Below, piece by piece: positions 11,613-28,585 of a stretch of 54,207 nucleotides of DNA. Both the position numbers and the translations under genes were made by a program. Below the pieces are notes generated by a model that saw nothing but the letters and a program-made list of their open reading frames with translations, made no database searches and was not told the DNA's origin. The DNA is taken from the NCBI GenBank assembly GCA_964520685.1, contig CAZFOG010000004.1, positions 1 to 54,207 on the forward strand. The letters run 5' to 3'. Each line of letters begins with the position of its first letter. Within the stretch, counting starts at the first letter, position 1. This stretch comes from an uncultured Nitrospiraceae bacterium (GTDB lineage Bacteria; Hydrogenedentota; Hydrogenedentia; Hydrogenedentales; SLHB01).

Positions 11613-11615
11613 TCC

Positions 11616-13780: not shown

Positions 13781-15690
13781 TCCGTCCCCTTCTCCTGTTG
13801 CGCAAAGAAAAACTGCTCAATGCCGATATAGCCCGGCGTAAACACCCGGTAATCGTGGATAATGCTGTCCGGGACGTTTCTGAAATCATTCCCCACAATG
13901 GTCAGCAGTTCCTGACGGCATATGCCGACAGTGTAGCACTGTTCGGACCACTGACGCAGTATGTTGCGGCCGAGCTCGAGGCGTCTATTCTCATCCGTAG
14001 CGCCCAGCAGCTCCTGGTACCAGTCGTACAGGCGCTGATACTCTTCCGGCGGTTTGACCCCCATGGCATCTTTCCCGTTGCTGGCGATATACCGCCCATA
14101 CAAGGGCGCGAAATAGCTGCTGTTCCGGCACGGCAGATACCATATCGGATCCAGCACCCAGTGAATGCCCGCGGTGGCATAGGCCCAGAAATCCGTGTTG
14201 CCGTTCCACATCCGCATCGGACTCAGCATGACGGCATCGACCTGGACCGCAAAATCCAGCCCGACCTCCCGGAAGTAATCCGCCACGAGTTCCCAGAGTT
14301 CGTTTGGCGTGCCGACTTCGGTGGCGTACACATTAATGATTTGCCGGAAAGGCTTGCCGTTGGGCAGCATGCGCATCCCTCCCGGGCCGCGAATGAGGCC
14401 AACGCCGTCGAGCAGTTCGCTGGCTCGGGCAGGGTCGTATTCCAGGTACCTTTCGTCGAATTCGGGCAGGTAATAGGGATCGTACGGGGAAGCAATGGCC
14501 CGCGATGGCTCGGCCATGCCCGAGAAGAGGATGAAATTGATCTCGTCGCGGTTAATCGCCAGTGACAATGCGATCCGAAAATCGCGCTGCGCAAGTATCG
14601 GCCGAATCTCTTCGTTCTTGCTGTGTGGGTTGACGTAAAGCACCACCGAACCGGGGTTGATGTCGCGCATCACCCGGTAATTCCCCCGCGTGCGGTTCTC
14701 CATGAAAAGGGCGAAATTCGAAGCATCGATGCGGCGCGCCTGAAAGTCCGTTTCGCCGGCCATGGCTTTCATGGTGACGATTTCGTTGTTCTGGACATCG
14801 GTGAACGCGACCTCGTCGATGTAGGGCAGTTGGTTTCCCGCGGGGTCCACCTTCCAGTAGTAGGGATTGCGCCGCGCGATTACCCGCTGGGCGGGAGGTT
14901 CGTTCTCGAGCTTGAAAGGGCGGTACGTAGGGCATTCCGGGTTCTGATTTACGTCGGCTTCGCGGTAGTAGAGGTCGCGCCAATGACTTAAACCGGCATC
15001 TCGGACAAGACGCTCGAGTTCTTCCGCATCGCGGAAACTCCTGTGGAACTGTTCGAGGTAATGGCGGGGGGCCAGGATGTGCGTGCCGTTGTATGCCATC
15101 ATTTCGGGAAAAATGCTGTAGGGCTGCGCAAACTCGAAGACCACCGTGTAGGCATCCGGCGTATGACAGCGCACCGGCGCATCATTGATCTCGAGCCATG
15201 GCGGAAACAGGGGAGACAGATCGGTGTTTGCCAATTGCTCGTTTACGAAGAAATCGATGTCCGCGGCGGTGAGCGGATGCCCGTCCGACCACTTCACGCC
15301 CTTCCTCAGGTGAAACACAAAGGTGCGCCCGTCATCGAGCATCTCCCAGCGCTCCGCGAGATTGGGTACTACCGTCTTGCCATCGCGCGCCCAGCGGACC
15401 AGCGGCTCATAGCCCATGCGTGTATTGAGCAGGAGGTCGCGATTGCCAAGGGTAAAGCGGCGCCACGTGCCTCCGTATTGCCCGATTTCCCTGACGGGCT
15501 CGACGAGCATCGGGTTTTCGGGCAAGCGCTCGTTGACGGGCGGCAGCTGGCCACGCTCCACCAGTGCGCGCAGGACCGGCGCTTCCTGGTAGGCGTAACT
15601 GGCGGTTCCGAGCAGGCACAGGGCCATTACCCACACAAACCGCCTTTGTGTCCCCCGTGAGATAAAAAGAGGTTGCATCAAACGTTTCAT
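13777..15690 (-). CDS. Extracellular solute-binding protein, family 5 (Opp/Dpp-type), paralog 1
   Basis: The track ORF extends to 15957 across the upstream gene. The ATG at 15690 gives MKRLMQPLF...FVWVMALCLLGTASYA (signal peptide), followed by YQEAPVLRALVERGQLPPVNERLPENP. Collinear similarity to the upstream SBP over the full length. Confidence 0.85.
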   Translation of the reverse strand: MKRLMQPLFISRGTQRRFVWVMALCLLGTASYAYQEAPVLRALVERGQLPPVNERLPENPMLVEPVREIGQYGGTWRRFTLGNRDLLLNTRMGYEPLVRWARDGKTVVPNLAERWEMLDDGRTFVFHLRKGVKWSDGHPLTAADIDFFVNEQLANTDLSPLFPPWLEINDAPVRCHTPDAYTVVFEFAQPYSIFPEMMAYNGTHILAPRHYLEQFHRSFRDAEELERLVRDAGLSHWRDLYYREADVNQNPECPTYRPFKLENEPPAQRVIARRNPYYWKVDPAGNQLPYIDEVAFTDVQNNEIVTMKAMAGETDFQARRIDASNFALFMENRTRGNYRVMRDINPGSVVLYVNPHSKNEEIRPILAQRDFRIALSLAINRDEINFILFSGMAEPSRAIASPYDPYYLPEFDERYLEYDPARASELLDGVGLIRGPGGMRMLPNGKPFRQIINVYATEVGTPNELWELVADYFREVGLDFAVQVDAVMLSPMRMWNGNTDFWAYATAGIHWVLDPIWYLPCRNSSYFAPLYGRYIASNGKDAMGVKPPEEYQRLYDWYQELLGATDENRRLELGRNILRQWSEQCYTVGICRQELLTIVGNDFRNVPDSIIHDYRVFTPGYIGIEQFFFAQQEKGTE

Positions 15691-15736
15691 TTGCCGGAAT
15701 TTGCCGCATGACGGCGCCAGGCAGACCAGAGTCCGC

Positions 15737-15765
15737 ACTATGGCGGAAACGCGGCCTGATTTCAA
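15737..15765 (-). promoter_or_regulatory. Candidate internal sigma70-type promoter between the two SBP genes
   Basis: On the minus strand: TTGAAA (15760-15765), 17-nt spacer, CATAGT (15737-15742). It sits in the only sizeable gap (98 nt) in the 14-gene train. Confidence 0.25.
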
Positions 15766-15788
15766 GCCAAGGGCGGGCACGCGCAGCC

Positions 15789-17675
15789 TCATCCGCCGAC
15801 CGCGGGGTCGATGTAAAACTGCTCGATGCCGATATAGCCCGGTGTGTAGATGCGCCAGTCGTGGATGATGCTCTCCGGCACATTCTTGAACCGGTTTGAG
15901 ACGATGGTCACCAATTCCGATCGGCAGATTCCGATGATGTAGCACTGGTCGGCCCATTGCCGGAGAATCTTGTGGGCGTAGTCGACTTGCGTCTGCCGGT
16001 CGTCAACGACCAGGGTCAAAGCCTCGTACCACTCAACCAATTGCTGGAACTCGGGCGAGGGCTTTACGCCGGCCTTGCCACCGGTGCCGATGTAACGCCC
16101 GTAGAGGGGGGCAAAATAGCTGATGCTCAGCAGGGGAACATACCATTTGGGATCCACAATGAAGTGCATGCCCGGCTGCTGATACGCCCAGAAGTCACTG
16201 TTGCCATTGGCGATGTGCATTACGCTCAAGGTGACCGAATCCTGTTGCACGGCGAAATCGAGGCCCACTTCACGAAAGTGGTCGGCCACCAGTTGCCAGA
16301 GTTCCATGGTGGTTCCTGCTTCCGAAGGGTAGACATGCAATACCGGCCGGAACGGGCGCCCGCTGGGAAGGCGGCGGAGGCCGGTGGGGCCGCGAGGCAG
16401 GAGCCCATCGAGAATCTCGTTGGCACGGGTTGGGTCGTACTCGAGATATTTTTCGTCGAATTCCGGCAGATAAAACGGGTCGAAGGGTGAGACAACGCCC
16501 CGTGAGGGAACCGCCATGCCGGAGAACAGGATAAAGATAACCTCCTCACGGTCCACGGCGATGCTGAGGGCGATGCGAAAATCGGGGTTTTGCAGGATCG
16601 GCCGCAGCTCATCGTCCTTGCTGTACTGGTTGATATAAAGACACAGGGTATCCGGCACGAGATCCCGCATTACGCGGTAGCCGTATCGTTCGCGGTTCTC
16701 CATGAAGATGGGATATGCGGAAGCATCAATACGGCGGGCCTGGAAATCCACCTCGCCCGACATGGCCTTCATGGTCAGCACTTCGTTGTTGGCTACGTCC
16801 GTGTAGGCAATCTCGTCGATATACGGGAGCTGGTTTCCTTCGGGGTCCACCTTCCAGTAATAGGGATTGCGTTTAGCGATAACACGGGGCGAGGTGGGGT
16901 CGTTCGCCAATTGAAATGCCCTGTACGTGGGCAGTTCCTTGTTTTCATTCAAACTTGCCATCACGGCGTACAACTGGCGCCAATGCTCGAAACCTCTCTC
17001 CCGGACACGGCGGCCAAGCTCCTCGGGGTCGGCAAAATCCCCGTGGAACTGCGTCATGTAATGTTTGGGTCTCACCATGTATGTCGCCCGGTATGCCACC
17101 AATTCCGGGAAGATGCCGTAGGGCCGTGCGAAGGTGAACACGATGGTATACGGGTCCGGGGCGGAAAACACCGCGCGCTTGCCGTCCACAACCAGCCAGT
17201 CGGGGTACACGGGCCCGAGCTCGGGATGCCCTATCACGTGTTTGAAGTGAAAATCGAAATCGGCGGAGGTCATCGGGTGGCCGTCCGACCATTTGAGCCC
17301 TTTGCGCAGGTGAAAGACGAAAGTCCGGCCACCGTCCAGCACATCCCAGGATTTGGCCAGACCCGGTTCGATGTTCTTGCCGGTTCTATCCCACCGGATG
17401 AGCGGATCGTATCCCAAACGGGTGTCGAGCTGCAGGTCGCGCAGGCCCAGGGTCAGCCGCCGCCAGGTGCCGCCGTAGATGCCGATTTCGTTAACCGGCG
17501 TGACTATGGCCGGTTCCTCGGGAAGCCGTTCTTCGACAGGAGGCAACTCACCACGCTCGACGAGGTCGCGCAGCATGGGGGCCTCCTGCCAGGCGGCCGC
17601 GGATGGCTCGGCGGGGCATGTCGCTGCTGCGATTACAAGGCATAGCGTTTGGAGTCTCGTGCCGGGCCTACTCAT
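15789..17675 (-). CDS. Extracellular solute-binding protein, family 5 (Opp/Dpp-type), paralog 2
   Basis: MSRPGTRLQTLCLVIAAATC...WQEAPMLRDLVERGELPPVEERLPEEP. Shared blocks with paralog 1 include GGTWRR, KWSDGHP, YYWKVDP.GNQLPYIDE and IHD.R.(F/Y)TPGYIGIEQF. The start overlaps the upstream stop by 8 nt. Confidence 0.85.
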   Translation of the reverse strand: MSRPGTRLQTLCLVIAAATCPAEPSAAAWQEAPMLRDLVERGELPPVEERLPEEPAIVTPVNEIGIYGGTWRRLTLGLRDLQLDTRLGYDPLIRWDRTGKNIEPGLAKSWDVLDGGRTFVFHLRKGLKWSDGHPMTSADFDFHFKHVIGHPELGPVYPDWLVVDGKRAVFSAPDPYTIVFTFARPYGIFPELVAYRATYMVRPKHYMTQFHGDFADPEELGRRVRERGFEHWRQLYAVMASLNENKELPTYRAFQLANDPTSPRVIAKRNPYYWKVDPEGNQLPYIDEIAYTDVANNEVLTMKAMSGEVDFQARRIDASAYPIFMENRERYGYRVMRDLVPDTLCLYINQYSKDDELRPILQNPDFRIALSIAVDREEVIFILFSGMAVPSRGVVSPFDPFYLPEFDEKYLEYDPTRANEILDGLLPRGPTGLRRLPSGRPFRPVLHVYPSEAGTTMELWQLVADHFREVGLDFAVQQDSVTLSVMHIANGNSDFWAYQQPGMHFIVDPKWYVPLLSISYFAPLYGRYIGTGGKAGVKPSPEFQQLVEWYEALTLVVDDRQTQVDYAHKILRQWADQCYIIGICRSELVTIVSNRFKNVPESIIHDWRIYTPGYIGIEQFYIDPAVGG

Positions 17676-18954
17676 CGGGAGGGGTTAGCGACGCCTTGAA
17701 TGCCACGGCCGTCAGCGGTGGGAGTGGCAAGTCGCGCTTCGGATCGCCACCGTCATCGCCGGCCACGTGGCTCACGCTGTACAGTTGATACGAATCGTCT
17801 TTACGCGAATACCGGAACGGTTCAGCGGCATACACATCTACGGGAACCGAGTCGACATATTCAGGCACCAAACTCTCCAGCGATTCCGGATAGGCACCGT
17901 GTGCCTGCCGGTAGAGTTCCAGCGCCACGACCGCCCGCAATCCTTCGAGGTATGTCTCGGCGAGAGTCTTTCTCTCGACGACATCCGCCGCAAAGCTCGT
18001 GAAGCGTGTGGGCAGGGCCCTGCGTTCGATGGCGCGCGCGCGATGGTGCCGCCGTCTCCAGGCGGTCAATTCGGCGTAGGACATCGTGGCGGCCTCGCGC
18101 AACATGGCTTCCTGTTTGCGCGCGAAGCGCCGTAGGGCCGCTTCCTGCAGGTTCCTTGCGAGCCCGCCCGAAGATCCCTCTTCTGCGGTCGTGTACACGC
18201 CTGCGTCGATCAGACGCAGTTCCCAGTCGACGGTTGCAGAAAGTTCGAGGCCGGCGGGAGCGAGCTGCTCGAGTGCGGAAAGAAAGCCCCGGCATTGATC
18301 TGACGAATAATCCGCCCAGGGCAGGCACATCGCGGAGCCGGCCGCGTCCTTAATCATATCGCAACCCTTTAGCGCGTTTTCGAATGGTCCATCGCACGCC
18401 ACCTGATTTCCCAGCCGCAGGGCGGCCAGGGCGAACCGGATGGCGTCTTCCGGCCTGCCCTGCTTCGCCGCATACAGGGCCTGGCCGGACAGTATTCGAG
18501 ACAGCGTCTCGAAGGCCGCCAGGTTGTCGCGGTTGGTCTGCAGCGAGTCGACAGGCGCCCAGTAGAAGGATTGCGTATCCAGAATCCGGGTACTCTCTTC
18601 CGCCGCCGGGCGCGTCTGCTCGAGATACTCGAGAACCTTGGGGTGGTCGTCGGAGAGGCGGATGGCTAAGCGCGATGCAATGACCGACGGGCCCAGCCCG
18701 CCGCGTTGGGCGTCCAATACGGAGGGCCTGTCGGGGGGAGGGAGGGTTGGCAGGTTCGTTGTGAGCTTAGCGAGCCCGTAGTAGGCGTTTTCCGGTGATA
18801 TGCGCCGTGCGGCGGCTTCCGGCGATTCGGGTCCGATTAACGGTTCCGAACGGTAGAAGCGCACGCCGACGATGAGTATCGCAAGCAGCACGATTGCGCC
18901 GGCAAGGATCATGATCGTGCGTTTCGCGCTGGTCTTTTTGGTCTTGCGGCGCAA
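17668..18954 (-). CDS. Membrane-anchored hypothetical protein (paralog B) with GspG-like C-terminal motif
   Basis: The track ORF runs to 19278, overlapping the upstream gene. A TTG at 18952-18954 preceded by AGGAG (18960-18964, 5-nt spacer) gives (M)RRKTKKTSAKRTIMILAGAIVLLAILIVGV, a basic N-terminus plus one TM helix. The conservative alternative is ATG at 18912. C-terminal motif: LELYRQAHGAYPESLESLVPEYVDSVPVD...PFRY. Confidence 0.55.
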   Translation of the reverse strand: MRRKTKKTSAKRTIMILAGAIVLLAILIVGVRFYRSEPLIGPESPEAAARRISPENAYYGLAKLTTNLPTLPPPDRPSVLDAQRGGLGPSVIASRLAIRLSDDHPKVLEYLEQTRPAAEESTRILDTQSFYWAPVDSLQTNRDNLAAFETLSRILSGQALYAAKQGRPEDAIRFALAALRLGNQVACDGPFENALKGCDMIKDAAGSAMCLPWADYSSDQCRGFLSALEQLAPAGLELSATVDWELRLIDAGVYTTAEEGSSGGLARNLQEAALRRFARKQEAMLREAATMSYAELTAWRRRHHRARAIERRALPTRFTSFAADVVERKTLAETYLEGLRAVVALELYRQAHGAYPESLESLVPEYVDSVPVDVYAAEPFRYSRKDDSYQLYSVSHVAGDDGGDPKRDLPLPPLTAVAFKASLTPPDE

Positions 18955-18962
18955 ATCTGCTC

Positions 18963-20261
18963 CTATTTGCCGATTCGCTGGAGTTCGGCCACGCCATTCA
19001 CCATTTCCATATTCTTTATCCTGTCGGGGTGCATCCACGCCCCCGGATGCAGCCTGGGGCCCGGGCTGACCAGCAAACGCTCCGGCGTGGCCGGGTTGTA
19101 CTCGAACGCCTTCCCCGTAAAGGGGTCTGCCGGCACGGACTCCATTCGTTCGCCTACTGCTTTGGCGAGGGTCTCCGGGTATTCTCCCCGATCGCGGCGG
19201 TGCAATTCCAGAAGCGTCATCAGCAGAACCTGGCGCTGTACCGCGATGCAGCAGGTTTCGTCGTATTTGCACACCCACAGAGAGAATGAGGGGCTGGCGA
19301 ACGGCTCAGGCTTGCCAAAGACTTCCTCGGGGTCGGGCAGCACGGATGCCTCGAAGCGAGGATAGGGAAGCTCGAGAACCTGCCGCCATGTTTCACCGCG
19401 CCGCACGATGGCGAGAATGGTTCGACGCTGATCGCGCAAAAAGAGATAGCGTCGCAGGTATCCCATCCTGCTGAAGCTGTCCTCGAGTCTGGCCCATTCC
19501 GAGCGCCACTGGGCATCAATCAGCCTTTCATAGGAAAGACGAGGCCCGTCTTCAAGTCGTAGCAGTCCTTCGAGCGCGTAATTCAGGACGGCAGAATCGT
19601 CCGTTTCCGCCAAATACGAGATGAGCTGATCCCAGCATTTCCGCTCTGTCCGCAGAAGCGAGCGCACCTGGTCGGTGTCGCCGTCTCGTTCAAGCATCCG
19701 GCACAGGCGAATGGTGTCGAAGAGCAGTTCGAGGGCAACGTCCCTGTCGCCCTGAATCTCCCAGGCATGGCGATAGGATACTCGGAAGAGGGTGAGGAAG
19801 TACTCTACGCGGAAACGCCGCCTGTCGTCTTCACGTCCGGGCAGCAGGAGGTACGGGGAAGTCAGGGCCTCTCTTGCCTTCTTGACGGCCGGCTGGCGCT
19901 GCTCTATGCAGGCAGCGACCTCGGGTGCATCGTCGGGCGCCCAGATGTCGAGTTCGCGGGCAATGGAATCGGCCTCGGTTTCGTAAAAGGCCCTCTCGCC
20001 GGGTTTTCCGGGCACGGGATACTTCTTCAGGATTGGTTTGGATTCAGGCAACAGCATCATCGCTTCGCGCAGTGCATTGAACGCGTTTTCGGACGAATCA
20101 ATTCGGGCCTGCTGTTCCGGGGTGAGGGGCGGAGGCCTCAATGTTCCGGGATCGCGGGAGCGCGCCCAGAGAACGGCCAGCCCCAGCACGCAAACAATCA
20201 AGAGCAGGACGAGTACCGTGCGCGTTTCGCGCCCTCGTCCGTGCCCCCGTGCCCGCGCCAT
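18963..20261 (-). CDS. Membrane-anchored hypothetical protein (paralog A) with GspG-like C-terminal motif
   Basis: MARARGHGRGRETRTVLVLLLIVCVLGLAVLW gives a basic N-terminus plus one TM helix. Shares ENA(F/Y)..L and (L)LEL(H/Y)R...G.YPE(T/S)L....V......SVP.D......F.Y with the downstream gene. Lies 1 nt after the permease stop. Confidence 0.6.
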   Translation of the reverse strand: MARARGHGRGRETRTVLVLLLIVCVLGLAVLWARSRDPGTLRPPPLTPEQQARIDSSENAFNALREAMMLLPESKPILKKYPVPGKPGERAFYETEADSIARELDIWAPDDAPEVAACIEQRQPAVKKAREALTSPYLLLPGREDDRRRFRVEYFLTLFRVSYRHAWEIQGDRDVALELLFDTIRLCRMLERDGDTDQVRSLLRTERKCWDQLISYLAETDDSAVLNYALEGLLRLEDGPRLSYERLIDAQWRSEWARLEDSFSRMGYLRRYLFLRDQRRTILAIVRRGETWRQVLELPYPRFEASVLPDPEEVFGKPEPFASPSFSLWVCKYDETCCIAVQRQVLLMTLLELHRRDRGEYPETLAKAVGERMESVPADPFTGKAFEYNPATPERLLVSPGPRLHPGAWMHPDRIKNMEMVNGVAELQRIGK

Positions 20262-20262
20262 A

Positions 20263-21129
20263 TCAGCTTTCCATTGCCTTGGCCTGAGAGTACTCGCGCC
20301 AGCGGACGAAGAACACGGTGAGGGCGATGAAGATGGCAGTGATGACGAACAGGGCGATGGTGGACTTGGCGGCGCCGACGAGGAACTGCTTCTTCTGAAA
20401 CTCGGCCAGGGCCGTGCGCATCATTGGGGCTTCACGCGCTTCAGCCAGTGGAGGCAGCAAGGCCACGACGTACTTTTCGATGGTAAAGAAATCGACGATA
20501 CCGGGCACATATACCATGAGCCGCTGCCAGCCGAACAAGAGCACAACACCCGTGATAATCGGCCGTTTGAAGAATGCGCCGAGCCACATGCAAAACGCGC
20601 CGTACCCGAGAAGCCCCATGAGCAGGGCCCCATCGTAGTGCAGCATGAGCTGGAGGTTCGGGGCCGAGAACGAGAAATTGCCCAGGGCCGTGCAGGCAGC
20701 GAAGGTCAGGAAGACTCCTGGCACAATAAGCGCCGTCGCAATCACGATGTACGCCGCAAAACGGCCGATGACCATGGCCGAGCGGGGTACGGGGCGCGTG
20801 AGGAAGTAGGGGATGGTCTGCGCCTCGATGTCCTCCCCGATCAGCATGACGCCGAAAAACAGTGCCAGCAACGGCAGGATGGCCTTGACATAGATATCCT
20901 CGACAAGCATCACAAACAGCTTGTTGCCTTCGTGGCCGAACGCGCCCTCGGTGAAGACCGTTGCGGCGAGGGGCATGATGACCGGCACAAGAGCCATCAC
21001 TCCCGCGAGAATGGTTCGTTTGCGGCGCAACGTGTTCACGAGAGCGTGGTGCGCCGCCGTCATCAGAAGGCGCGAGTAGGGAGGCTCCGCCGCCGGGAAA
21101 GTCAGGGCTGTGTCGCTCGATTCGCTCAT
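20263..21129 (-). CDS. ABC-2-type transporter permease (second of two)
   Basis: ATG at 21129 (MSESSDTALTF) is preceded by GGAGG and lies 7 nt after the ATPase stop. Multi-TM hydrophobic protein (ILAGVMALVPVIMPLAA..., AILPLLALFFGVMLIGEDIEAQTIPYFLTRP..., typical of ABC-2 exporter permeases). Confidence 0.7.
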   Translation of the reverse strand: MSESSDTALTFPAAEPPYSRLLMTAAHHALVNTLRRKRTILAGVMALVPVIMPLAATVFTEGAFGHEGNKLFVMLVEDIYVKAILPLLALFFGVMLIGEDIEAQTIPYFLTRPVPRSAMVIGRFAAYIVIATALIVPGVFLTFAACTALGNFSFSAPNLQLMLHYDGALLMGLLGYGAFCMWLGAFFKRPIITGVVLLFGWQRLMVYVPGIVDFFTIEKYVVALLPPLAEAREAPMMRTALAEFQKKQFLVGAAKSTIALFVITAIFIALTVFFVRWREYSQAKAMES

Positions 21130-21136
21130 AGTCCTC

Positions 21137-22054
21137 CTACCGCACCAGATACTGAAACACCGACTGGAGGTCGGCGTCTGCACATGCAAAACTCGTCACC
21201 TCGACCGCCTTGCCGGTGATCAGGTGGTTCAACTTGTCGAAGAAACCGTTGGGATCCTTTGTTCGCACGGTCACACGGCCATCCTCGAACTCGATGCTCA
21301 AGGTCGAGTCGTCTTCGGCGAAATACGCCGCGAGACTTCTGGGCGATGGACATTCGACCGTTACCGCGAGGGGGTGCTCGTCCATGAGCTCGCGCACGTC
21401 CTGGACTTTTCCGCGCGCGAGAATGCACCCGTTGTGCAGCAGGACCACGTGACTGGTGACCCGCTCGATTTCGTACAGGATATGGCTCGACACGAGCACC
21501 GTCCGGCCTTCCCGGCCAAGTTCACGAATGAGCGCGAACATCTCCTCGCGTCCCTCGGGATCCAAGCCCGCCATAGGTTCGTCAAGGAAGAGCAGCTCCG
21601 GCGAGGGGGCCAGCGCCTGGGCGATCTTGATGCGCTGGCGCATGCCGCGGCTGTAGGTTTCGATAAGGTCATCCATACGCTCGGTCATCCGGACGCGCTC
21701 GCAGGCTTCCTCGGCCCGCTTCACGGCTTCGCCGCCCGTCATGCCATAGAACCGGTTCAGCCAATACACGAACTCGTAACCGGTGGTGTTATCGGGAAAC
21801 CGGTCAAATTCGGGACAATAGCCGAGGCGCCGCAGTACCCGCATGTTGTTGCGGGGCGATTCGCCGAAAACCCGGATGGCGCCGCGGCTCGGACTATACA
21901 ATCCCAGGGCGAGCTTGATGAAAGTGCTCTTGCCCGCGCCGTTGGGGCCGAGAAGTCCGGTCACACCCGGCTCGACGGTCACGGTGAGGTTATTCACGGC
22001 CACGACTTCGCCAAACCATTTCGACAGCTCGCTAACTTCGATGACGGGGCTCAT
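21137..22054 (-). CDS. ABC transporter ATP-binding protein (ABC-2 subfamily), second of two
   Basis: Only the last 305 codons of the 701-aa track ORF are genuine. The ATG at 22054 (MSPVIEVSELSKWFG) forms an ATGA overlap with the upstream permease stop. Walker A GPNGAGKST, signature YSRGMRQR, Walker B LFLDEPMAGLD, H-loop SSHIL. Confidence 0.9.
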   Translation of the reverse strand: MSPVIEVSELSKWFGEVVAVNNLTVTVEPGVTGLLGPNGAGKSTFIKLALGLYSPSRGAIRVFGESPRNNMRVLRRLGYCPEFDRFPDNTTGYEFVYWLNRFYGMTGGEAVKRAEEACERVRMTERMDDLIETYSRGMRQRIKIAQALAPSPELLFLDEPMAGLDPEGREEMFALIRELGREGRTVLVSSHILYEIERVTSHVVLLHNGCILARGKVQDVRELMDEHPLAVTVECPSPRSLAAYFAEDDSTLSIEFEDGRVTVRTKDPNGFFDKLNHLITGKAVEVTSFACADADLQSVFQYLVR

Positions 22055-22926
22055 GACGCGCGCTCCGCCTGCCGGATCCGCGAAGCGATCGCCCAGTAGC
22101 AGGCCACGCAGACGGCGGCAATGATCAGCAGGGACCATCCCCAGTGCAGGGGGAAGCTTTTCCGGGGTTGTGCGAAGAGCGATTCGCCCACGCGATTGAT
22201 GGCCATGGGAATGGACGCGACCGACCAGTTGGGATTGCGCAGGAAACCGGGTAACGCGCTGCCCAGCGCCGAGTTGCCGAAGAGGACCATGAATACCGCG
22301 ATTCCCGCATAGCGCTGGCTCGAGAACAGGGCGGAACTGGCCAGAACGCCCAGAGCGCACGGCAATACAAGACATGCCGAAAAAGCGACGATCGAGAAGG
22401 GGATCCAATACGTTTCGCGCAGGGTGTCCATGCCCGGGGCCAGCAGATTGTGCAGAAGCACCAGGAGCATGTCGGGGACTGCCGTCAACATCATGCCGAC
22501 GAGAACCAGGGTGATGATCTTTCCCGCAATGTAGTCCATGCGGGTCAGGGGCTTCGAGAAGTAGATCTCGATGAGGTTGTCGCGGAAATCGTTGCAGATC
22601 ATGCCCGACCCCGCGAAGAGGGTAATGATGAACACGAGGGGGCTTTGAATGCGCAGGTAGTCGAAAAAAGTGCGCTCGTGTACCTGCATCATGGCCACGT
22701 TCTTGAGCGCCATGAGGGCCGGGCTCTGGTTGGCCATGCTCACCATATCGTAAACGGTGATCTGGAAAATGCGGAAGCTGGTGTGAATGACAGCCATGAT
22801 CAACAGGTAGACAAAGGCGCGCGTGCTGAACAACACGCGAAGTTCCTGCTTGACCATGACCCACCACCGGAGACCCTGGAGTGCCTTTCCGTCGTAGGCC
22901 CGGTATGTTTGTTCGTAAATGGGCAC
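22051..22926 (-). CDS. ABC-2-type transporter permease-like membrane protein (first of two)
   Basis: MPIYEQTYRAYDGKALQGLRWWVMVKQELR... followed by about six hydrophobic segments. Starts immediately after the ATPase stop (22927), with a 0-nt gap. Confidence 0.7.
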   Translation of the reverse strand: MPIYEQTYRAYDGKALQGLRWWVMVKQELRVLFSTRAFVYLLIMAVIHTSFRIFQITVYDMVSMANQSPALMALKNVAMMQVHERTFFDYLRIQSPLVFIITLFAGSGMICNDFRDNLIEIYFSKPLTRMDYIAGKIITLVLVGMMLTAVPDMLLVLLHNLLAPGMDTLRETYWIPFSIVAFSACLVLPCALGVLASSALFSSQRYAGIAVFMVLFGNSALGSALPGFLRNPNWSVASIPMAINRVGESLFAQPRKSFPLHWGWSLLIIAAVCVACYWAIASRIRQAERAS

Positions 22927-23841
22927 CTAGTGTCTCCCGATTGCCTGCATGAACACCTCCTCCAATCGATGCCGCACCGGGACGAAATGGCGCACCTGCG
23001 TATTCTCGGCGCGGGCAATCTCGAACAGGGCGCGTGGATTCATGCTCACAGGTTTCTCCACCAGCAGGTTGCCGTTGGGCAGGGTCTGGAGCGTGCAGCC
23101 CGCGGTTTCCAGCGCCTTGCGGAAGGCGTCGTTGTTCTCGCGCACGCGAATCTCGAACAGGTTTTCGCGGGCGGTCGTGAGAGCGCCGATCGAACCTTCC
23201 CGCACGATCCGGCCTTTGTGAATCACGAGCACATGGTCGCATACGTGCTCGACATCCGGCAGGAGATGCGACGACAAGAGCACCGTCACACCGCGCTTGG
23301 CCACCAATTCCTTGATCAATTCGAGCATCTCGACCCGCCCCTCAGGGTCGAGGCCGTTCGTGGGTTCATCGAGGAGCAGCAATTTGGGGTCATGCACGAG
23401 GGCCTGAGCAAACTTGATTCGCTGGCACATGCCGGTCGAATAGGTCTGCATCTTTCGATACCGGCTTTCCCCCACGCCGACGTAATTGAGCACCTCGTGG
23501 GCGCGTTCCATGGCGTCGGTCCGTTGCATGCCGAAGAGACACCCGCAATAGGTCAGAAAGGATACGGCGCTCACTTTCCGGCCTATGGCGTCCCGCTCGG
23601 GCATGTACCCCAGACGCTGGCGCGCCTCGAGGGCCTGCTCGGGCAGTTTGAAACCGAAAAGGGACGCTTCGCCGGCTTCCGCTCGAATGAACCCGAGCAG
23701 CGTCTTCAGCAGCGTGCTCTTGCCCGCGCCATTCGGACCGAGCAGCCCCACGGCGCCCTTTTCGACGGAGCAAGTCACTCCCTGCAGTGCTTTGGTCGCA
23801 CCATACGAGACTTCCACGTCTTTTAGTTCCACAATTGCCAT
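22927..23841 (-). CDS. ABC transporter ATP-binding protein (ABC-2 subfamily), first of two
   Basis: Walker A GPNGAGKST, signature YSTGMCQR, Walker B LLLDEPTNGLD, H-loop SSHLL. Lies 7 nt after the upstream stop. Confidence 0.9.
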   Translation of the reverse strand: MAIVELKDVEVSYGATKALQGVTCSVEKGAVGLLGPNGAGKSTLLKTLLGFIRAEAGEASLFGFKLPEQALEARQRLGYMPERDAIGRKVSAVSFLTYCGCLFGMQRTDAMERAHEVLNYVGVGESRYRKMQTYSTGMCQRIKFAQALVHDPKLLLLDEPTNGLDPEGRVEMLELIKELVAKRGVTVLLSSHLLPDVEHVCDHVLVIHKGRIVREGSIGALTTARENLFEIRVRENNDAFRKALETAGCTLQTLPNGNLLVEKPVSMNPRALFEIARAENTQVRHFVPVRHRLEEVFMQAIGRH

Positions 23842-23848
23842 AGCGCGC

Positions 23849-26803
23849 TTACGATCCCGGAATGCTGATATTCAGGTCGATTGTTTCGTCGCCGCGGACG
23901 CTGACCGTCTGGCTGGTACGCGGCTGCCCCGTGCCGGACATTGCCTCGCCCATATTCACGTACATGATGTCGAGCTGGAAGGTGCCATCCGGGCAGTTCT
24001 CGATTTGGAAGTATCCGTCGTCGCGAATGGGGGACATTCCAACTACGGACGGTGCCCCGTCCGAGCCGGCTCCGGCAAACCAGTCGGCGGGATTCGTCAG
24101 GTTGAGGCCGGTCATGGCGCTAGAACTGCCCGGTACCCGCAAGACCGCAAAGCCCAGAACCCCGCCCGTGGGCGGTGGAGTGCACAACCCCTGGACCGTT
24201 GCGCCGCCTTCCTCACCGAAATTATGGACGGTCGTTTCCCCTTCGCGGATTTCGACCTGGGCGTGCATCGGGGCGAACAGGTCCGTGCCCTGTCCCTCGA
24301 ACGAGACGGCTGTAGCCATGTACGTACCGGCGGCCAGGCCGTCGATAAAATACTGGCCGTTCTGGTCGGCGGAACTCATTTCACTGACCCCGTTTCCGAT
24401 GACCGTGACCATGGCTCCGGGCAGATAGGCGCCGTTGCGGGTCACGTATCCCTGCAATCGGCCGCCGCCACCCAGCAGCACCACGACTCCCGACACGGTC
24501 CGGCTCTGCAGCACTTGCACGGGGCCGCTGTTGCCCTGGGCGTAGCCCTCGGCCTGGGCAAATATGGTGTAAGTGCCGTCCGCAAGATTGCGGAATTCGA
24601 ACCGGCCATCCGAGCCGACCTGCATGCCGCGCCGTTGCGTCTGGGCAACCATGTCCACCAGGCGCCCGAATTGCGACTCCGACGCGCCGCCTACCCAAAC
24701 GGTGGCGCCGACGGGGATACGGCCGTCCGTAGTCTGCACGGTACCCTGGATAACGCCGCCCGCCTGGCTCACGTAGAGGGTGACCCCGTCCACACGCTGT
24801 CCTTCGGCAAGCGTGATCTCCTGCCGCCCCGGCGTCAATCCCTGCGCGCTGGCCTCGACCGTATAGGCGCCCGCGGAGAGCGACAATTCGAAACTGCCGT
24901 CGGGGTTGTTGAAACTGCGCATGTCGCGCGGATCCCCACTGGTCAGGAGGGCCAGACCGATCCCGCCCTCCTGAGTCGTCGAAGGGACCGCCCGAACGCT
25001 GTACCGCTCCGGCGGCCGCCCCGTTTCGCGCACAAGAACCGTGCCCCGGACCTGTCCCGTCGCCTCCATCATGATGTTGGTGGGCTCGTCCAGGCGCACG
25101 TCGCTGACTTGCTGCGACGCGTATCCTTCTTTCTCGGCGATGATCATCAGAAAGCCCGACTCGACGCCATAGAATCCGTACTCGCCGCGCTGGTCCGACC
25201 GGGTCTCGAGTGAAGTGGCGCTCATGGATTCGGTGCCCAGTCCGGTCAGCGAAAGGTTGACTCCGGGAATGGGCCGGCCCGCCGTGTCCGTGACCATTCC
25301 GTAGATCACGTAGTTTCCGCTGTCCACGGCCGAAAGCACAATGTCAAAACCGCGGATGTCGTTGAAGCCGTCCGCATATAGCGGGTCGCCCATGACCGCG
25401 ATCTTGTAGCCCTCTTTCTGGGCCAGGATCTGGTAATCCCCGGGCGGGAGGTTCGCAATAACATAACTGCCGTCGGGCTCGCTCTTATTGTTCCGGAAGG
25501 CGCGAGCTTCGTCCAGACGCTGAAACAGCTGCGAATAGGACGGAACGCAGATGGCTTCCGCGCGGGGAATCGGGCTCCCGTTCTGGTCAAGGACGCGGCC
25601 GTAGACGGATGTGCCTCGCATGACGTGGATATCGACACGCACTTCGCGTGCCGACTCCGTGATCATAAAGGGCTCGGTCAATTGGGGAGCATAGTCTCGT
25701 GAATTGGCGTAGACACGCCATTCCTGGTTCAGAGGCACGCCCACCAGTTCGTAATAGCCGTCTTCTATCGAACGGTCGTGGAGGGGCGGCGCCTGGTGCA
25801 CCGCGGCGTCGATTGCCTGCGAAATCAGACTCTCGGAGGTGCACAGATACACCTCGGTGTTTTGCACCGGTTTCTTCTCGCTATCCGTGATGTACCCCCA
25901 GACAACGCCCGCAGGAGATAGCGCGAAGTTGATGTCCTGCACCTTCTGATCGGGCTCTTCGATGAATACGTTCTGGACGGGAATCCGGCCCGGCGCCTTA
26001 AATGGCTGACGGGCCAGATCAAGAGAGACCTGGTATGTGCCCGGCAGGAGGCCGGTGATCACGTAGGTGCCGTCCGATACCGTCTCGGTTTCAGCGTTGT
26101 GCGTGCCGCTGTCGCTGTTGGCGTTAATGTGTATGAGGGGGATGCCCTTGTTGTTCCCCGTTTCAACCACCTGGCCCGATATCGACGCGCCTCTCGAAAG
26201 TGCGACGTCGAACCGGACTTGCTTTGCCTCGCCCTCGGGGAACTCGACAATCTCCCGGTGCGTGACAAAACCGCTTCGGGCGACCTGGATCACGTACCGG
26301 CCGGGCCGGGGCGCAGGCAGCGCATACTGGCCCTTGCCGTCCGACTTGGTGGTTCTCCGTAGTCCCTGGGCCGAATCGAGAAATGCCGGTTTCATGAATG
26401 GCGGAGCGGTCACGTCTTTCGGGCCGGTCTCGTTTCCGGCAGGTTCCATCTGCGGAGGCAGCAACATCGAGCGGATGTGTGCGTCTTCGATGGGGCCGCC
26501 GGTGTCTGCTTCGGTCACCACACCGATAATGGCAAACGGGTCTTCTGCCGTCACGTCATTGCCGGGTCTTCGGGACGAACCGGCCGGACCCGACGAGCCC
26601 GGCCTTCGTATATCGTCCCGCCAGGGGTGGTTGATAAGGTGGCTGGGACGGTTGCTGACCGAGATGGTCGACGGCTTTGGCGGCGGTTCCTTCCGCGAGG
26701 TGAAAAGCAGGGCAAGCACGATCGCCACCCCTACGGCAACCCAAATGCCCACGATCTTCTGAAACGGGCTAAAACGTTCTGGTGCGTTATGACTTCGAGT
26801 CAC
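23849..26803 (-). CDS. Large membrane-anchored protein with tandem carboxypeptidase-regulatory-like (CarboxypepD_reg / Cna-B-like) beta-sandwich repeats
   Basis: GTG start at 26803 (start uncertain). N-terminal TM helix IVGIWVAVGVAIVLALLF. The rest holds many repeats of roughly 90-100 aa, with motifs such as GQVVETGNNKGIPLIHINA, GRVLDQNGSPIPRAEA, GMVTDTAGRPIPGVNLSL, GTVQTTDGRIPVGATVWV and GYVTRNGAYLPGAMVTVIG. Each repeat is followed by a D/S-GxY...L.(P/A)G.Y segment. Confidence 0.7.
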   Translation of the reverse strand: MTRSHNAPERFSPFQKIVGIWVAVGVAIVLALLFTSRKEPPPKPSTISVSNRPSHLINHPWRDDIRRPGSSGPAGSSRRPGNDVTAEDPFAIIGVVTEADTGGPIEDAHIRSMLLPPQMEPAGNETGPKDVTAPPFMKPAFLDSAQGLRRTTKSDGKGQYALPAPRPGRYVIQVARSGFVTHREIVEFPEGEAKQVRFDVALSRGASISGQVVETGNNKGIPLIHINANSDSGTHNAETETVSDGTYVITGLLPGTYQVSLDLARQPFKAPGRIPVQNVFIEEPDQKVQDINFALSPAGVVWGYITDSEKKPVQNTEVYLCTSESLISQAIDAAVHQAPPLHDRSIEDGYYELVGVPLNQEWRVYANSRDYAPQLTEPFMITESAREVRVDIHVMRGTSVYGRVLDQNGSPIPRAEAICVPSYSQLFQRLDEARAFRNNKSEPDGSYVIANLPPGDYQILAQKEGYKIAVMGDPLYADGFNDIRGFDIVLSAVDSGNYVIYGMVTDTAGRPIPGVNLSLTGLGTESMSATSLETRSDQRGEYGFYGVESGFLMIIAEKEGYASQQVSDVRLDEPTNIMMEATGQVRGTVLVRETGRPPERYSVRAVPSTTQEGGIGLALLTSGDPRDMRSFNNPDGSFELSLSAGAYTVEASAQGLTPGRQEITLAEGQRVDGVTLYVSQAGGVIQGTVQTTDGRIPVGATVWVGGASESQFGRLVDMVAQTQRRGMQVGSDGRFEFRNLADGTYTIFAQAEGYAQGNSGPVQVLQSRTVSGVVVLLGGGGRLQGYVTRNGAYLPGAMVTVIGNGVSEMSSADQNGQYFIDGLAAGTYMATAVSFEGQGTDLFAPMHAQVEIREGETTVHNFGEEGGATVQGLCTPPPTGGVLGFAVLRVPGSSSAMTGLNLTNPADWFAGAGSDGAPSVVGMSPIRDDGYFQIENCPDGTFQLDIMYVNMGEAMSGTGQPRTSQTVSVRGDETIDLNISIPGS

Positions 26804-27168
26804 GGTTTCCTGCGATCAAACGTCACGGCTCTCCAGAGTGTAGCTCTCGAAAGCCCATCAAATTAACAGCTTAGACACTATATACTGCGCAGTCGTTTCA
26901 CGGGCGCCTGCAAGCTCCTTATGATACCGGTGACAGCGGGGCATACACAACTGGCACTCACGAGACCCGCCACGTTGCCTTCCTGTGGCCCTCTGACTCG
27001 CGGTTGTATGTAACTATGGCCATCTTCTGCCCTTATGATCACCCGCAGCGGGGATACCTCGCGCAATCCGGGCGCGCGGAGTGCACTATCTCGGCTCTTG
27101 TTTGGCGCGGCACGATGCACTACGATGCTGGTATGCACCGGGACGAACAGGAGTGAAGGAGTACGACC

Positions 27169-28581
27169 ATGCGCTGTGTTGAGATTATCTGTGTGTTTAC
27201 CGGATGTGCCCTTTTGGGGACGGCTGCCCACGGCGTCCAGGCGACCATCGCACCGGACCGGATGCTGGTTGTTGATGGCGAGCGAACCTTCGTCATTGGG
27301 CTCTATGAGAACCCGGCGGACAACGCAGCGCTCGAGGCCGCTGCAAAAGCGGGTTTCAATCTGGTCCATTCCAGCGCCGATGTGGGGGCGCTCGAACGCC
27401 TGCACGGACACAAGCTCTGGGCGTGGATAAACACCGGCGGCAGCATTGATCTCAGCGAGGACCAGGCGGCCCGGGAAGACAGTCTCAATCGGATGGTGGC
27501 CGATTTTGGCGGGCATCCGGCCCTGCTGGTGTGGGAAGTGCCCGACGAGGCCCTATGGAACTGCTTCTATGGCGCCATCCAATGGCGGCGCAGCCAGGAG
27601 CCGGCCCAGTTGCGCGACAAAATAGACGCTCTCACGGACGAAGCCGTGCGGACCGAACTGCGCCAAATGCTCCAGACCTCGAGCGAGCTCTGGCGGCAGG
27701 GGCTGTATGCCGAATCGGAGGCAACGGCCGACAGCGTCTGGCAAAAACTGGGCGAAGAGTCGCCAAGACCGGCTTATGGCCTCTCGGATGCACCCGAGCG
27801 CGCCGCGAAAATGTGCGCGGGTATGCTCCAAGGCTACGAATTCCTGAAAAAAACGGATCCCAATCATCCTATCTGGATGAATCACGCTCCGCGCAATCAG
27901 CTCAACCAGTTGGCCGCGTTTAACCGGGGCGCCGATATCGTTGGCTGCGACATTTATCCCGTGCGGGAGTTCGAGACCGGCCATTCCGACTTGGCCGAGC
28001 GGACTTTGGCCGCGGTTGGGGCCTACACGGACCGCATGCAGGCCGCCGCGCCCGGCAAACCGGTCTGGATGGTCCTTCAAGGGTTCGGATGGCGCGATAT
28101 CAGCGATGCTCCGGACCCGGACCCCGAGAATGGGCGTCGCCCGACCCTCGAGGAAACCCGCTTCATGGCCTACGACGCCATCGTACACGGCGCGCGCGGG
28201 ATTCTGTATTGGGGAACGGCGTATATCGAGAAGGATTCGCAACTGTGGCAGGATTTATTGACCGTAATTGCTGAGTTGGATGCCCTTCAGCCGGTGTTGT
28301 CGGCGCAGGATGCCTCCGGTGAATTTCCTGTGGCTACAGCCGAGACGTTCGGGTCGGTAGACCGGGGGATTCGTGTCCTCCCGAAGGTTGTCTCGGGCAA
28401 GGTCTGGTTTCTGGTCGTGAATGACTGGACCGATCCGCTCACGTACACGATCCGGGGTCTCGATGATTTCAACAACTCGCGATACGTCGAGAACTACACC
28501 GAGAACGAAGCCACCGTCATGGGTGGCGCGCTTACTTTCACGATTCCCGGCCAGCGTGTTCATGTTCTCATACCGGAGTAA
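27169..28581 (+). CDS. Secreted glycoside-hydrolase-like TIM-barrel protein (family not assignable by eye)
   Basis: Signal peptide MRCVEIICVFTGCALLGTAAHG, with RBS GAAGGAG 7 nt upstream. HPALLVWEVPDEALW resembles the beta-4 acid/base region of clan GH-A enzymes. Product call is weak. Confidence 0.5.
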   Translation: MRCVEIICVFTGCALLGTAAHGVQATIAPDRMLVVDGERTFVIGLYENPADNAALEAAAKAGFNLVHSSADVGALERLHGHKLWAWINTGGSIDLSEDQAAREDSLNRMVADFGGHPALLVWEVPDEALWNCFYGAIQWRRSQEPAQLRDKIDALTDEAVRTELRQMLQTSSELWRQGLYAESEATADSVWQKLGEESPRPAYGLSDAPERAAKMCAGMLQGYEFLKKTDPNHPIWMNHAPRNQLNQLAAFNRGADIVGCDIYPVREFETGHSDLAERTLAAVGAYTDRMQAAAPGKPVWMVLQGFGWRDISDAPDPDPENGRRPTLEETRFMAYDAIVHGARGILYWGTAYIEKDSQLWQDLLTVIAELDALQPVLSAQDASGEFPVATAETFGSVDRGIRVLPKVVSGKVWFLVVNDWTDPLTYTIRGLDDFNNSRYVENYTENEATVMGGALTFTIPGQRVHVLIPE

Positions 28582-28585
28582 CTGC

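Follow-up and report, generated by a model that had tools for sequence, protein, structure and literature searches.

A four-gene NosFY-like ABC cassette shared between bacterial phyla, with lineage-specific predicted periplasmic partners in Hydrogenedentota

Several described ATP-binding cassette (ABC) systems resemble parts of the locus considered here. In nos clusters the gene order is nosD-nosF-nosY. The NosDFY(L) machinery (PDB 7o0y, 7o0z and 7znq) serves nitrous oxide reductase maturation. Staphylococcal PmtAB and PmtCD are distinct transporters that export phenol-soluble modulins, and PmtCD exports amphipathic peptides from the membrane (PMC9974410). The type V exporter YxlF2G2 of Bacillus subtilis has no known function (PMC11466899), groups of extracytoplasmic function (ECF) sigma factors associated with ABC transporters are known (PMC7826278), and neighbourhoods that combine toastrack proteins, ABC transporters and sigma factors or other regulators have been proposed to be membrane-stress modules (Ravi et al. 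2024, PMC11237479). Here, we compare with these systems an operon of seven genes, g1 to g7, that lies at 17668-26803 on the minus strand of a 54,207-nt stretch of contig CAZFOG010000004.1 (assembly GCA_964520685.1) from an uncultured member of Hydrogenedentota; this whole stretch is referred to as the window. The operon is built around a duplicated NosFY-like ABC core, and the four genes of this core are what different phyla share.

The seven consecutive minus-strand genes, delimited from the listing of open reading frames (ORFs) and an analysis of start codons, are spaced along g1 to g7 by 7, 0, -4, 7, 1 and 8 nt, and these junctions are exactly those of the initial annotation. The first gene, g1 (23849-26803, GTG start), encodes a signal-anchored, predicted periplasmic protein of 984 residues with nine CarboxypepD_reg-type beta-sandwich domains. 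The four ABC genes follow: g2 (22927-23841) encodes ABC ATPase 1, a DrrA/GldA/NosF-like protein of 304 residues with a C-terminal extension; g3 (22051-22926, GTG start) encodes ABC-2 permease 1, of 291 residues; g4 (21137-22054), the start of which overlaps the g3 stop in an ATGA, encodes ABC ATPase 2, a 305-residue paralog of g2; and g5 (20263-21129), with GGAGGA upstream, encodes ABC-2 permease 2, of 288 residues. The last two genes belong to an accessory family: g6 (18963-20261) encodes a 432-residue single-pass, predicted periplasmic helical-repeat protein with a putative GspG-like head at its C-terminus, and g7 (17668-18954, TTG start, AGGAG upstream) its 428-residue paralog. A consensus scan of both strands found 15 weak terminator-like matches against 9.6 +/- 3.2 expected, with none at the gene junctions, and the counts from the promoter and terminator scan within the operon were near chance or modestly above it. 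That these genes form one tightly coupled, conserved module, as was first proposed, is borne out by the junctions and by the loci of relatives.

Pfam families and a complete set of catalytic motifs confirm the alternation of intact ATPase and permease genes. Both ATPases match ABC_tran (PF00005; 93.6 bits for g2 and 93.5 bits for g4). They share the Walker A sequence GPNGAGKS and an SSH motif, carry the signatures STGMCQR (g2) and SRGMRQR (g4) and the Walker B sequences LLLLDEP (g2) and LLFLDEP (g4), and also have a Q-loop, catalytic Glu, D-loop and H-switch. The two proteins are 42% identical. Across 75 members of the g2 family and 69 of the g4 family, the Walker A Lys, the signature Ser and Gly, the Walker B Asp-Glu and the switch His are invariant, alignment gaps aside. 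Because both ATPases keep these residues, neither ATP site is degenerate in the way seen in many obligate heterodimers. Among NCBIfam models, g2 scores 209.6 bits with DrrA and 198.3 bits with GldA, each under its cutoff.

The permeases are more distant from one another. The g3 protein matches ABC2_membrane_2 (PF12679; 33.3 bits, cutoff 27.2), and g5 matches ABC2_membrane_4 (PF12730; 39.0 bits, cutoff 27) as well as PF12679 (29.7 bits, cutoff 27.2). At the threshold used, a hydropathy scan gave six hydrophobic segments in g3 and five in g5, and g3 bears the N-terminal motif MPIYEQTYRxYDG. The initial annotation judged the two permeases unalike, and BLASTP indeed finds no similarity (E 1.2); however, profile-profile comparison shows that their families are remote, collinear homologs of each other (hhalign E 6e-5 over 228 columns, probability 65%). 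Both are also remote homologs of NosY. An AlphaFold2 (AF2) model of g3 with a predicted local distance difference test score (pLDDT) of 84 has NosY as its best PDB fold (7o0z_E, E 6.7e-5, TM-score 0.65/0.71), followed by PmtD and then ABCG proteins; NosY, PmtD, ABCG2, ABCG5/G8, ABCG1 and ABCG25 were each matched with a probability of 1.00. The g5 family profile matches NosY by sequence (7o0y_D, E 9e-6), and the g3 family profile had no match among PDB sequences. Homologs of g3 in JGI annotation are assigned to the COG 'multi-copper enzyme maturation permease'. Judged from the g3 model and hydropathy, the permeases are compact, with no periplasmic domain of any size. The features of an ABC exporter are thus all present, namely NBD motifs (those of the nucleotide-binding domain), separate ABC2_membrane transmembrane domains (TMDs) over gathering score and, in the g3 model, a type V fold. 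The core is a duplicated NosFY-like type V (ABC-2) ABC system.

The distribution of these genes defines the conserved unit. The g3 protein is 75-84% identical to proteins on contigs of Candidatus Hydrogenedentota metagenome-assembled genomes (MAGs), and a profile-guided scan of one genome per species gave 72 loci, mostly from Hydrogenedentota/Hydrogenedentales. Every ORF in the Hydrogenedentota-type loci was scored against the seven window proteins. All four ABC genes were found in 55 of 73 such loci, and contig ends cut most of the others. Of the 59 Hydrogenedentota loci with room for a g1 gene, 52 have one ahead of the ABC genes, down to about 33-40% g3 identity. Members of the g6/g7 family follow g5 in 21 of 51 loci with room, in one, two or four copies, and were detected in the fetched loci solely at this position, including in one locus (L032) that lacks g1. 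The complete seven-gene layout is confined to the closest relatives (L002, L003, L004 and L007) and one further locus (L073).

Outside Hydrogenedentota the four ABC genes stand without these companions. When the g3-family profile was run against 1.84 billion representative proteins (clusters at 50% identity), 2077 clusters matched at E <= 1e-3 and 1102 at E <= 1e-10. Most were full-length matches of about 280-300 residues with two motifs in common, MPIYDQSYRHWEG at the N-terminus and GAGLIANDxRxNALQLYLSKPLTRxDY. Two further genome scans, of 80 loci (the best of 485 confirmed matches) and of 79 loci, added Acidobacteriota (Vicinamibacterales, Vicinamibacteria and Thermoanaerobaculia), Poribacteria and one Planctomycetota MAG (L231), and one g3-type permease cluster is named from Krumholzibacteria. 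With family-specific hidden Markov models (HMMs), nearly all of the 80 Acidobacteriota/Poribacteria loci show the order g2-g3-g4-g5. In the second scan, which includes the Thermoanaerobaculia locus L226 and the Planctomycetota locus, 47 of 79 have exactly this order and the rest are partial, split or extended. In both scans the upstream ATPase scored best with the g2 model and the downstream ATPase with the g4 model, and in one cassette (L082) the junctions are 0, -4 and -4 nt. The g6/g7 family is absent from the loci of both scans, and no g1 ortholog precedes the cassette in either, re-fetched Hydrogenedentota loci aside.

What is conserved is therefore a cassette of four translationally coupled genes, found in at least four phyla, and since only this cassette is shared across phyla, g1, g6 and g7 are later additions. 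The 'seven-gene module' first described is real as an operon, but four of its genes are shared across phyla, five are found in most Hydrogenedentota and the full seven are lineage-specific. The search for conserved neighbourhoods that the initial annotation proposed has thus shown that the gene order recurs in relatives, so that the arrangement is not a product of chance, and the module does not map onto a characterised system with the same gene set. The proposed HMM searches likewise found no curated family that fixes a substrate. Names of the cassette members seen are generic or 'hypothetical protein', and no description of the module was found in the literature on CarboxypepD_reg and ABC-2 proteins, on Hydrogenedentes ABC transporters or on ECF, DUF4097 and ABC genes.

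Eight of the related contigs (L013, L014, L025, L056, L149, L151, L157 and L215) have a cassette of Hydrogenedentota or Acidobacteriota type but carry the labels Nitrospirales, Bathyarchaeia, Acidimicrobiia, cyanobacterium, Bifidobacteriaceae or Bifidobacterium, and are probably taxonomic mislabels or binning errors. Among the 72 loci, some had no label, and odd labels such as Nitrospirales, Nitrospiraceae and Bathyarchaeia were taken as mislabels because the cassette is of the Hydrogenedentota type. A lone g3-like permease, with no ABC ATPase or second permease in the roughly 8-kb flanks fetched, was seen in a Poribacteria MAG (L081, 8001-8870), where it adjoins two paralogous proteins, and in a MAG with no label beyond 'uncultured bacterium' (L083).

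Different lineages attach different proteins to the cassette. In one Poribacteria locus (L228, 8751-9986) the gene for a CarboxypepD_reg repeat protein begins 37 nt past g5 and is cut by the contig end. That the association recurs in another gene order supports a functional connection of beta-sandwich arrays with the ABC core. In 51 Acidobacteriota loci (Vicinamibacterales) a transmembrane (TM)-anchored protein of about 327 residues with no Pfam family follows g5 after a gap of about 140 nt (for example L150:10835-11818), and it may be the periplasmic partner of that lineage.

In the window the most prominent candidate partner is g1. As initially described, it combines one N-terminal TM segment (residues 17-35, the single hydrophobic segment of the protein) with an array of CarboxypepD_reg domains (PF13620; 243.6 bits in seven stretches). 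An iterated repeat HMM built for this protein resolves nine tandem domains at residues 74-982, and nine is also the median of its orthologs. Because it is conserved over its full length in 55 orthologs, most strongly at residues 300-480, g1 behaves as a stable ortholog and not as a fast-evolving surface antigen. If extended, the array could be long enough to cross the periplasm, at an estimated 4 nm or so per domain. NOMO2 was its only PDB sequence match (9c7v_B, E 1e-4), and Pfam sub-hits were to NOMO_3rd and EMC7_beta-sandw. NOMO is a membrane-anchored rod of the eukaryotic endoplasmic reticulum with about 12 beta-sandwich domains, part of the BOS complex. Both NOMO and g1 are single-pass proteins with tandem transthyretin/CarboxypepD_reg-like domains on the non-cytoplasmic side; the anchor is C-terminal in NOMO and N-terminal in g1. 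The likeness concerns the repeat domain alone and implies no functional link.

Neither Pfam nor NCBIfam has a family that matches g6 or g7. Both proteins have a single TM segment at the N-terminus (residues 15-33 in g6), and they are weak paralogs, with 26% identity over 184 N-terminal residues and 44% over 39 C-terminal residues. Ten close homologs of g6 were found, and every named one is from Hydrogenedentota. In the AF2 model of g7 (pLDDT 78.6) the N-terminal TM helix is followed by an all-alpha array, and the chain ends in a long helix and a small beta-sheet. A PDB fold search with this model gave nothing better than E 0.09, with designed helical repeats as the top matches, and the profile of the entire family matched designed helical repeats alone among PDB sequences. 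The profile of the last 100 or so residues placed GspG/EpsG on top of its PDB matches (2kep, E 0.0011), with further GspG-type matches at E 0.04-0.08 (3gn9, 4lw9 and 3fu1). Moreover, Pfam T2SSG is matched by 8 of 21 family members (best E 1.7e-5), g7 of the window not being among them. This suggests that g6 and g7 carry a pseudopilin-like head on a helical stalk, a helical repeat of about 300 residues separating the TM helix from the head. The prepilin N_methyl motif (PF07963) had no match in g6 or g7, whose N-termini consist of a basic stretch and a plain TM helix; lacking a prepilin N-terminus, these proteins are not pseudopilins. Single-pass topology and paralogy thus stand as initially annotated, whereas the description as being of unknown function can be extended by a helical repeat and a probable GspG-like C-terminal domain.

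The C-terminal GspG-like motif (YPExL..L.P.Y...P.DP....PF.Y) also occurs in otherwise unrelated proteins of 470-580 residues (P0137-P0141; loci L159 and L160), two of which are named from Verrucomicrobiales and 'Candidatus Sulfotelmatobacter'. The two examined (P0138 and P0139) have no adjacent ABC genes, and the motif is for this reason regarded as a general domain and not as a marker of the system.

Clustering of flanking ORFs connects related loci to ECF sigma factors. In 26 Hydrogenedentota loci a co-oriented trio stands directly ahead of g1, often with overlapping genes: a DUF4097 toastrack protein (about 319 residues, N-terminal TM segment), an ECF sigma factor (about 205 residues) and an anti-sigma-like protein of about 140 residues with two TM segments (L016, L022, L076 at 3942-5858, and 23 further loci). 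In two loci without g1 (L047 and L058) a DUF4097 toastrack gene directly follows g5. A different arrangement, of Thermoanaerobaculia type, is seen in L226 (1293-4984) and L235 (88-3284), where an ECF sigma gene and a large anti-sigma gene abut g2 with 4-nt overlaps. In these anti-sigma proteins of 873-901 residues, which are 38% identical to each other and unrelated to g1, zf-HC2 is followed by a TM segment and then FecR, and the C-terminal 600 or so residues are unassigned. The FecR-type anti-sigma factor of L226 has no similarity to g1 or to the 327-residue Acidobacteriota partner. These partners are therefore independent recruitments.

A promoter-like element is also present. A motif of ECF type, TGAAAC-N17-GTGTCTAA, lies at 26873-26899 on the minus strand, about 75 nt 5' of the g1 start and beyond the coordinates first annotated for the module. 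An alignment shows that the block TGAAAC-N17-GTCTAA is conserved 5' of g1 in the six closest relatives (L002-L007), and a similar GAAAC-N16-18-GTC motif, mostly GAAACC...GGTC, heads all 20 of the 20 toastrack-sigma operons checked. Five matches to GAAAC-N15-19-GTCT were found in the window against 1.46 expected, and the one upstream of g1 is the only one noted ahead of an operon. Expression is probably under ECF sigma control, in which case the operon would serve in envelope maintenance or stress, and the motif suggests that the responsible ECF sigma factor, with the operon in its regulon, has its gene in another part of the genome.

Together, these data lead us to a reading that we hold at about even strength: the operon would encode a NosFY-like type V ABC system of the envelope that is controlled by an ECF sigma factor and has periplasmic partners specific to the lineage. 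ATP hydrolysis by both motif-intact ATPases would drive the compact six-TM permeases. These might clear the inner membrane of an amphipathic or lipid-like compound, in the manner of PmtCD, or they might pass conformational work to docked periplasmic partners, as NosFY does to NosD. In either case g1, g6 and g7, presumably docked, would act as envelope adaptors or receivers.

Several observations weigh against this reading. The entire window contains no ECF sigma, anti-sigma or toastrack gene, and its promoter motif is a consensus-like match. The periplasmic loops of the permeases are short, and an 11-residue loop extension in the g3 protein of Hydrogenedentota also occurs in loci without g1. 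In Vicinamibacterales the cassette sits amid housekeeping genes with no regulator nearby. Finally, no studied member of the family was found, and no gene of the operon points to a substrate. Rfam gave no match at the gathering threshold across the window, hence there is no riboswitch to serve as a ligand clue. An anti-phage role was considered and rejected, since PADLOC matched g2 and g4 only as generic ABC/AAA ATPases and the other five proteins not at all.

It is possible, though we think it less likely, that the four ABC genes encode two independent, co-expressed homodimeric pumps, (g2)2(g3)2 and (g4)2(g5)2, with related but distinct substrates; g1, g6 and g7 would then be co-transcribed envelope proteins and not subunits. 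The precedent is pmtABCD, which has the same gene order and encodes separate PmtAB and PmtCD transporters (PMC9974410), PmtCD being a solved complex (PDB 6xjh and 9q1y), and the same holds for the B. subtilis ytr operon with its two separate transporters (PMC11466899). The complete invariant motifs are in keeping with two pumps, as neither ATPase needs a partner to compensate for a degenerate site. However, among about 230 loci examined none clearly has one pair alone, the nearest being the lone g3-like genes of L081 and L083, and the 4-nt overlap of g3 and g4 couples the pairs across the very boundary between them, both here and in Acidobacteriota. Co-occurrence and coupling favour obligate co-function, although they do not prove a heterotetramer. 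The initial annotation took the dissimilar permeases to imply a heteromeric machine of two NBDs and two distinct TMDs; this went too far, since the pairs of pmtABCD are separate and no ATPase site is degenerate here. A heterotetramer and two cooperating homodimeric pumps have roughly comparable odds.

A pure mechanotransducer of the NosDFY kind is a more doubtful explanation. In such a system nothing would cross the membrane, and ATP would cycle the g1 rod, together with g6 and g7, for envelope work such as assembly, remodelling or ligand hand-over. NosY is the closest protein both by fold and by sequence profile, the order of large periplasmic protein, ATPase and permease mirrors nosD-nosF-nosY, and the single-pass periplasmic proteins joined to the ABC core differ from lineage to lineage. 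Against this, g1 is not NosD-like, having no beta-helix or NosD Pfam match, and no enzyme or client protein is encoded nearby. Moreover, seven Hydrogenedentota loci, and all Acidobacteriota loci scanned for g1, have the core but no g1, which indicates that it has an intrinsic function and favours transport over pure mechanotransduction.

That the ABC system and its partners act mainly as the sensory input to an ECF sigma/anti-sigma switch, like flux sensing of the BceAB type, and not as an output that detoxifies or exports, is considered unlikely. This idea draws on two unrelated kinds of anti-sigma protein, found beside the cassette in one phylum or another and in both cases together with an ECF sigma factor. 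In B. subtilis, the ECF sigma gene sigY, yxlC, yxlD and yxlFG lie in one operon, sigY-yxlCDEFG. YxlC and YxlD are regulators of this sigma factor (PMC7826278), YxlF2G2 is a type V ABC system (PMC11466899), and toastrack proteins have been proposed as scaffolds of membrane-proximal signalling (PMC11237479). Most carriers of the cassette, including Vicinamibacterales and the clade of the window, have no adjacent sigma or anti-sigma gene, however, and because autoregulated ECF operons often hold output genes, adjacency cannot separate a sensor from an output.

A stronger form of the mechanical model appears similarly improbable. Here an obligate heterotetramer would be the motor of an undescribed, ECF-controlled, envelope-spanning apparatus, driving the g1 rod and g6/g7 in NosDFY style. 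If this were true, the apparatus would move or assemble an envelope component, and the widespread four-gene cassette with the MPIYDQSYRHWEG motif would represent a new mechanotransducing ABC class that recruits phylum-specific periplasmic effectors.

A fortuitous juxtaposition of g1, g6 and g7 with an ordinary ABC-2 exporter is very hard to sustain: g6/g7 are missing from over half of the related loci and g1 from seven Hydrogenedentota loci, and an unrelated Opp-type importer likewise abuts g7 with an 8-nt overlap, but the adjacency of g1 in 52 of 59 loci across wide divergence of g3, the recurrence of a CarboxypepD_reg repeat protein next to the cassette in Poribacteria and the restriction of the g6/g7 family, in the fetched loci, to the position after g5, even where g1 is lacking, already largely refute it.

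The importer in question, of Opp/Dpp type, lies after g7 at 9535-17675 on the minus strand and comprises two SBP_bac_5 substrate-binding proteins, two permeases and two oligo_HPY ATPases; the start of the first binding protein (17675) overlaps the g7 stop (17668) by 8 nt. It is followed by a class-III aminotransferase gene at 8264-9505 on the minus strand. In L002, L003, L004 and L007 the aminotransferase gene comes directly after g7, with a 4-nt overlap in L002 and L003, and an importer separates the two genes in the window and in L005 only. Because relatives join both genes directly, the importer looks like an insertion into an older g7-aminotransferase junction. Divergent from g1, at 27169-29875 on the plus strand, are genes for a weakly GH42-like protein (470 residues) and a DegT/DnrJ/EryC1-family aminotransferase of the sugar-modifying type. 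The start of the second of these is probably further downstream than listed, as the listed ORFs overlap.

The family is large and conserved, and it occurs in Hydrogenedentota, Acidobacteriota, Poribacteria, Planctomycetota and Krumholzibacteria. The exchange of partners and of ECF/anti-sigma pairs between lineages suggests that the envelope system is modular and can be compared with NosDFY or with mechanotransducers of the MacB type, and if this is correct it would add to the ABC systems known to work via periplasmic partners. Genomes of little-known phyla can be annotated with the help of the permease motif at the N-terminus, the fixed gene order, the families of partner proteins and the candidate ECF promoter. 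The transporter class itself is familiar, and the phylum with the full version is known here from metagenome assemblies alone.

The comparison with named systems shows that the initial view of a module with no obvious functional precedent was too strong, given the fold and profile matches to NosY, the gene order of pmtABCD and the layout of ybhGFSR. At the same time the NCBIfam scores for GldA, PmtA, PmtC, PmtD, NodI, LptB and others were all far under their cutoffs (for LptB, 124 and 96 bits against 240), and on this ground the core cannot be assigned to a named system. The exclusion of GldAFG and NosDFY, which the initial annotation had also made, agrees with the NCBIfam scores, the nature of the partner and the neighbourhood. 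For GldAFG, the GldA scores of 198.3 bits (g2) and 156.8 bits (g4) compare with a TIGR03522 cutoff of 402.6, and g3, g5, g1, g6 and g7 have no GldF or GldG match in NCBIfam.

NosDFY shares with the window the permease fold, ATPases of about 300 residues and the gene for a large periplasmic protein directly upstream of the ATPase gene. It has one ATPase/permease pair, however, where the window has two paralogous pairs, and its partner NosD is a beta-helix, whereas g1 is a TM-anchored array of nine beta-sandwich domains in which no NosD or beta-helix Pfam match was found. None of nosZ, nosL and nosR is among the ten flanking genes scanned, which encode Opp-type importer parts, aminotransferases and a glycoside-hydrolase-like protein, neighbours of the Acidobacteriota cassettes are housekeeping genes, and no Nos family is among the NCBIfam matches listed for the seven proteins. 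Kinship with NosY and NosF is homology at the superfamily level only.

The pmtABCD operon has an identical ATPase-permease-ATPase-permease order, and PmtD (9q1y and 6xjh) is both the second-best fold of g3 and its only, weak, NCBIfam match. However, the scores fall far short of the NCBIfam cutoffs: g2 reaches 110.3 bits with PmtA and 110.6 with PmtC (cutoffs 350 and 375), g4 reaches 102.1 with PmtA (cutoff 350), g3 reaches 19.9 with PmtD (cutoff 220), and g5 has no match to the NCBIfam Pmt families. The window also has additional periplasmic partners, its host is probably diderm, and no peptide-toxin genes were identified.

In E. coli ybhGFSR the first gene encodes a membrane-anchored periplasmic partner, and the genes after it provide two NBDs and two ABC-2 TMDs that differ from each other (PMC7190983), an arrangement like that of the window. 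The related system yhiI-rbbA-yhhJ is touched on as well, as RbbA is among the NCBIfam matches of the window ATPases. Yet the NBDs are fused in YbhF and are separate proteins here, and the window permeases are of the NosY-like ABC2_membrane_2/4 families and lack a large periplasmic loop. No HlyD/MFP Pfam match was found in g1, g6 or g7, the g7 model being a helical repeat with a small alpha/beta head, and a link to an outer-membrane channel is not evident here.

The sigY-yxlCDEFG and toastrack operons resemble the related loci in the trio upstream of g1 found in 26 of them. The window, in contrast, has no regulator genes while retaining the promoter-like motif, and these operons as described have neither a double ABC pair nor a beta-sandwich array or GspG-headed proteins. 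Overall, because it fails a defining feature of each, the module is not a member of the NosDFY, pmtABCD, ybhGFSR or ECF/toastrack operons; it is an uncharacterised envelope system made from known transporter parts and not a wholly new machine.

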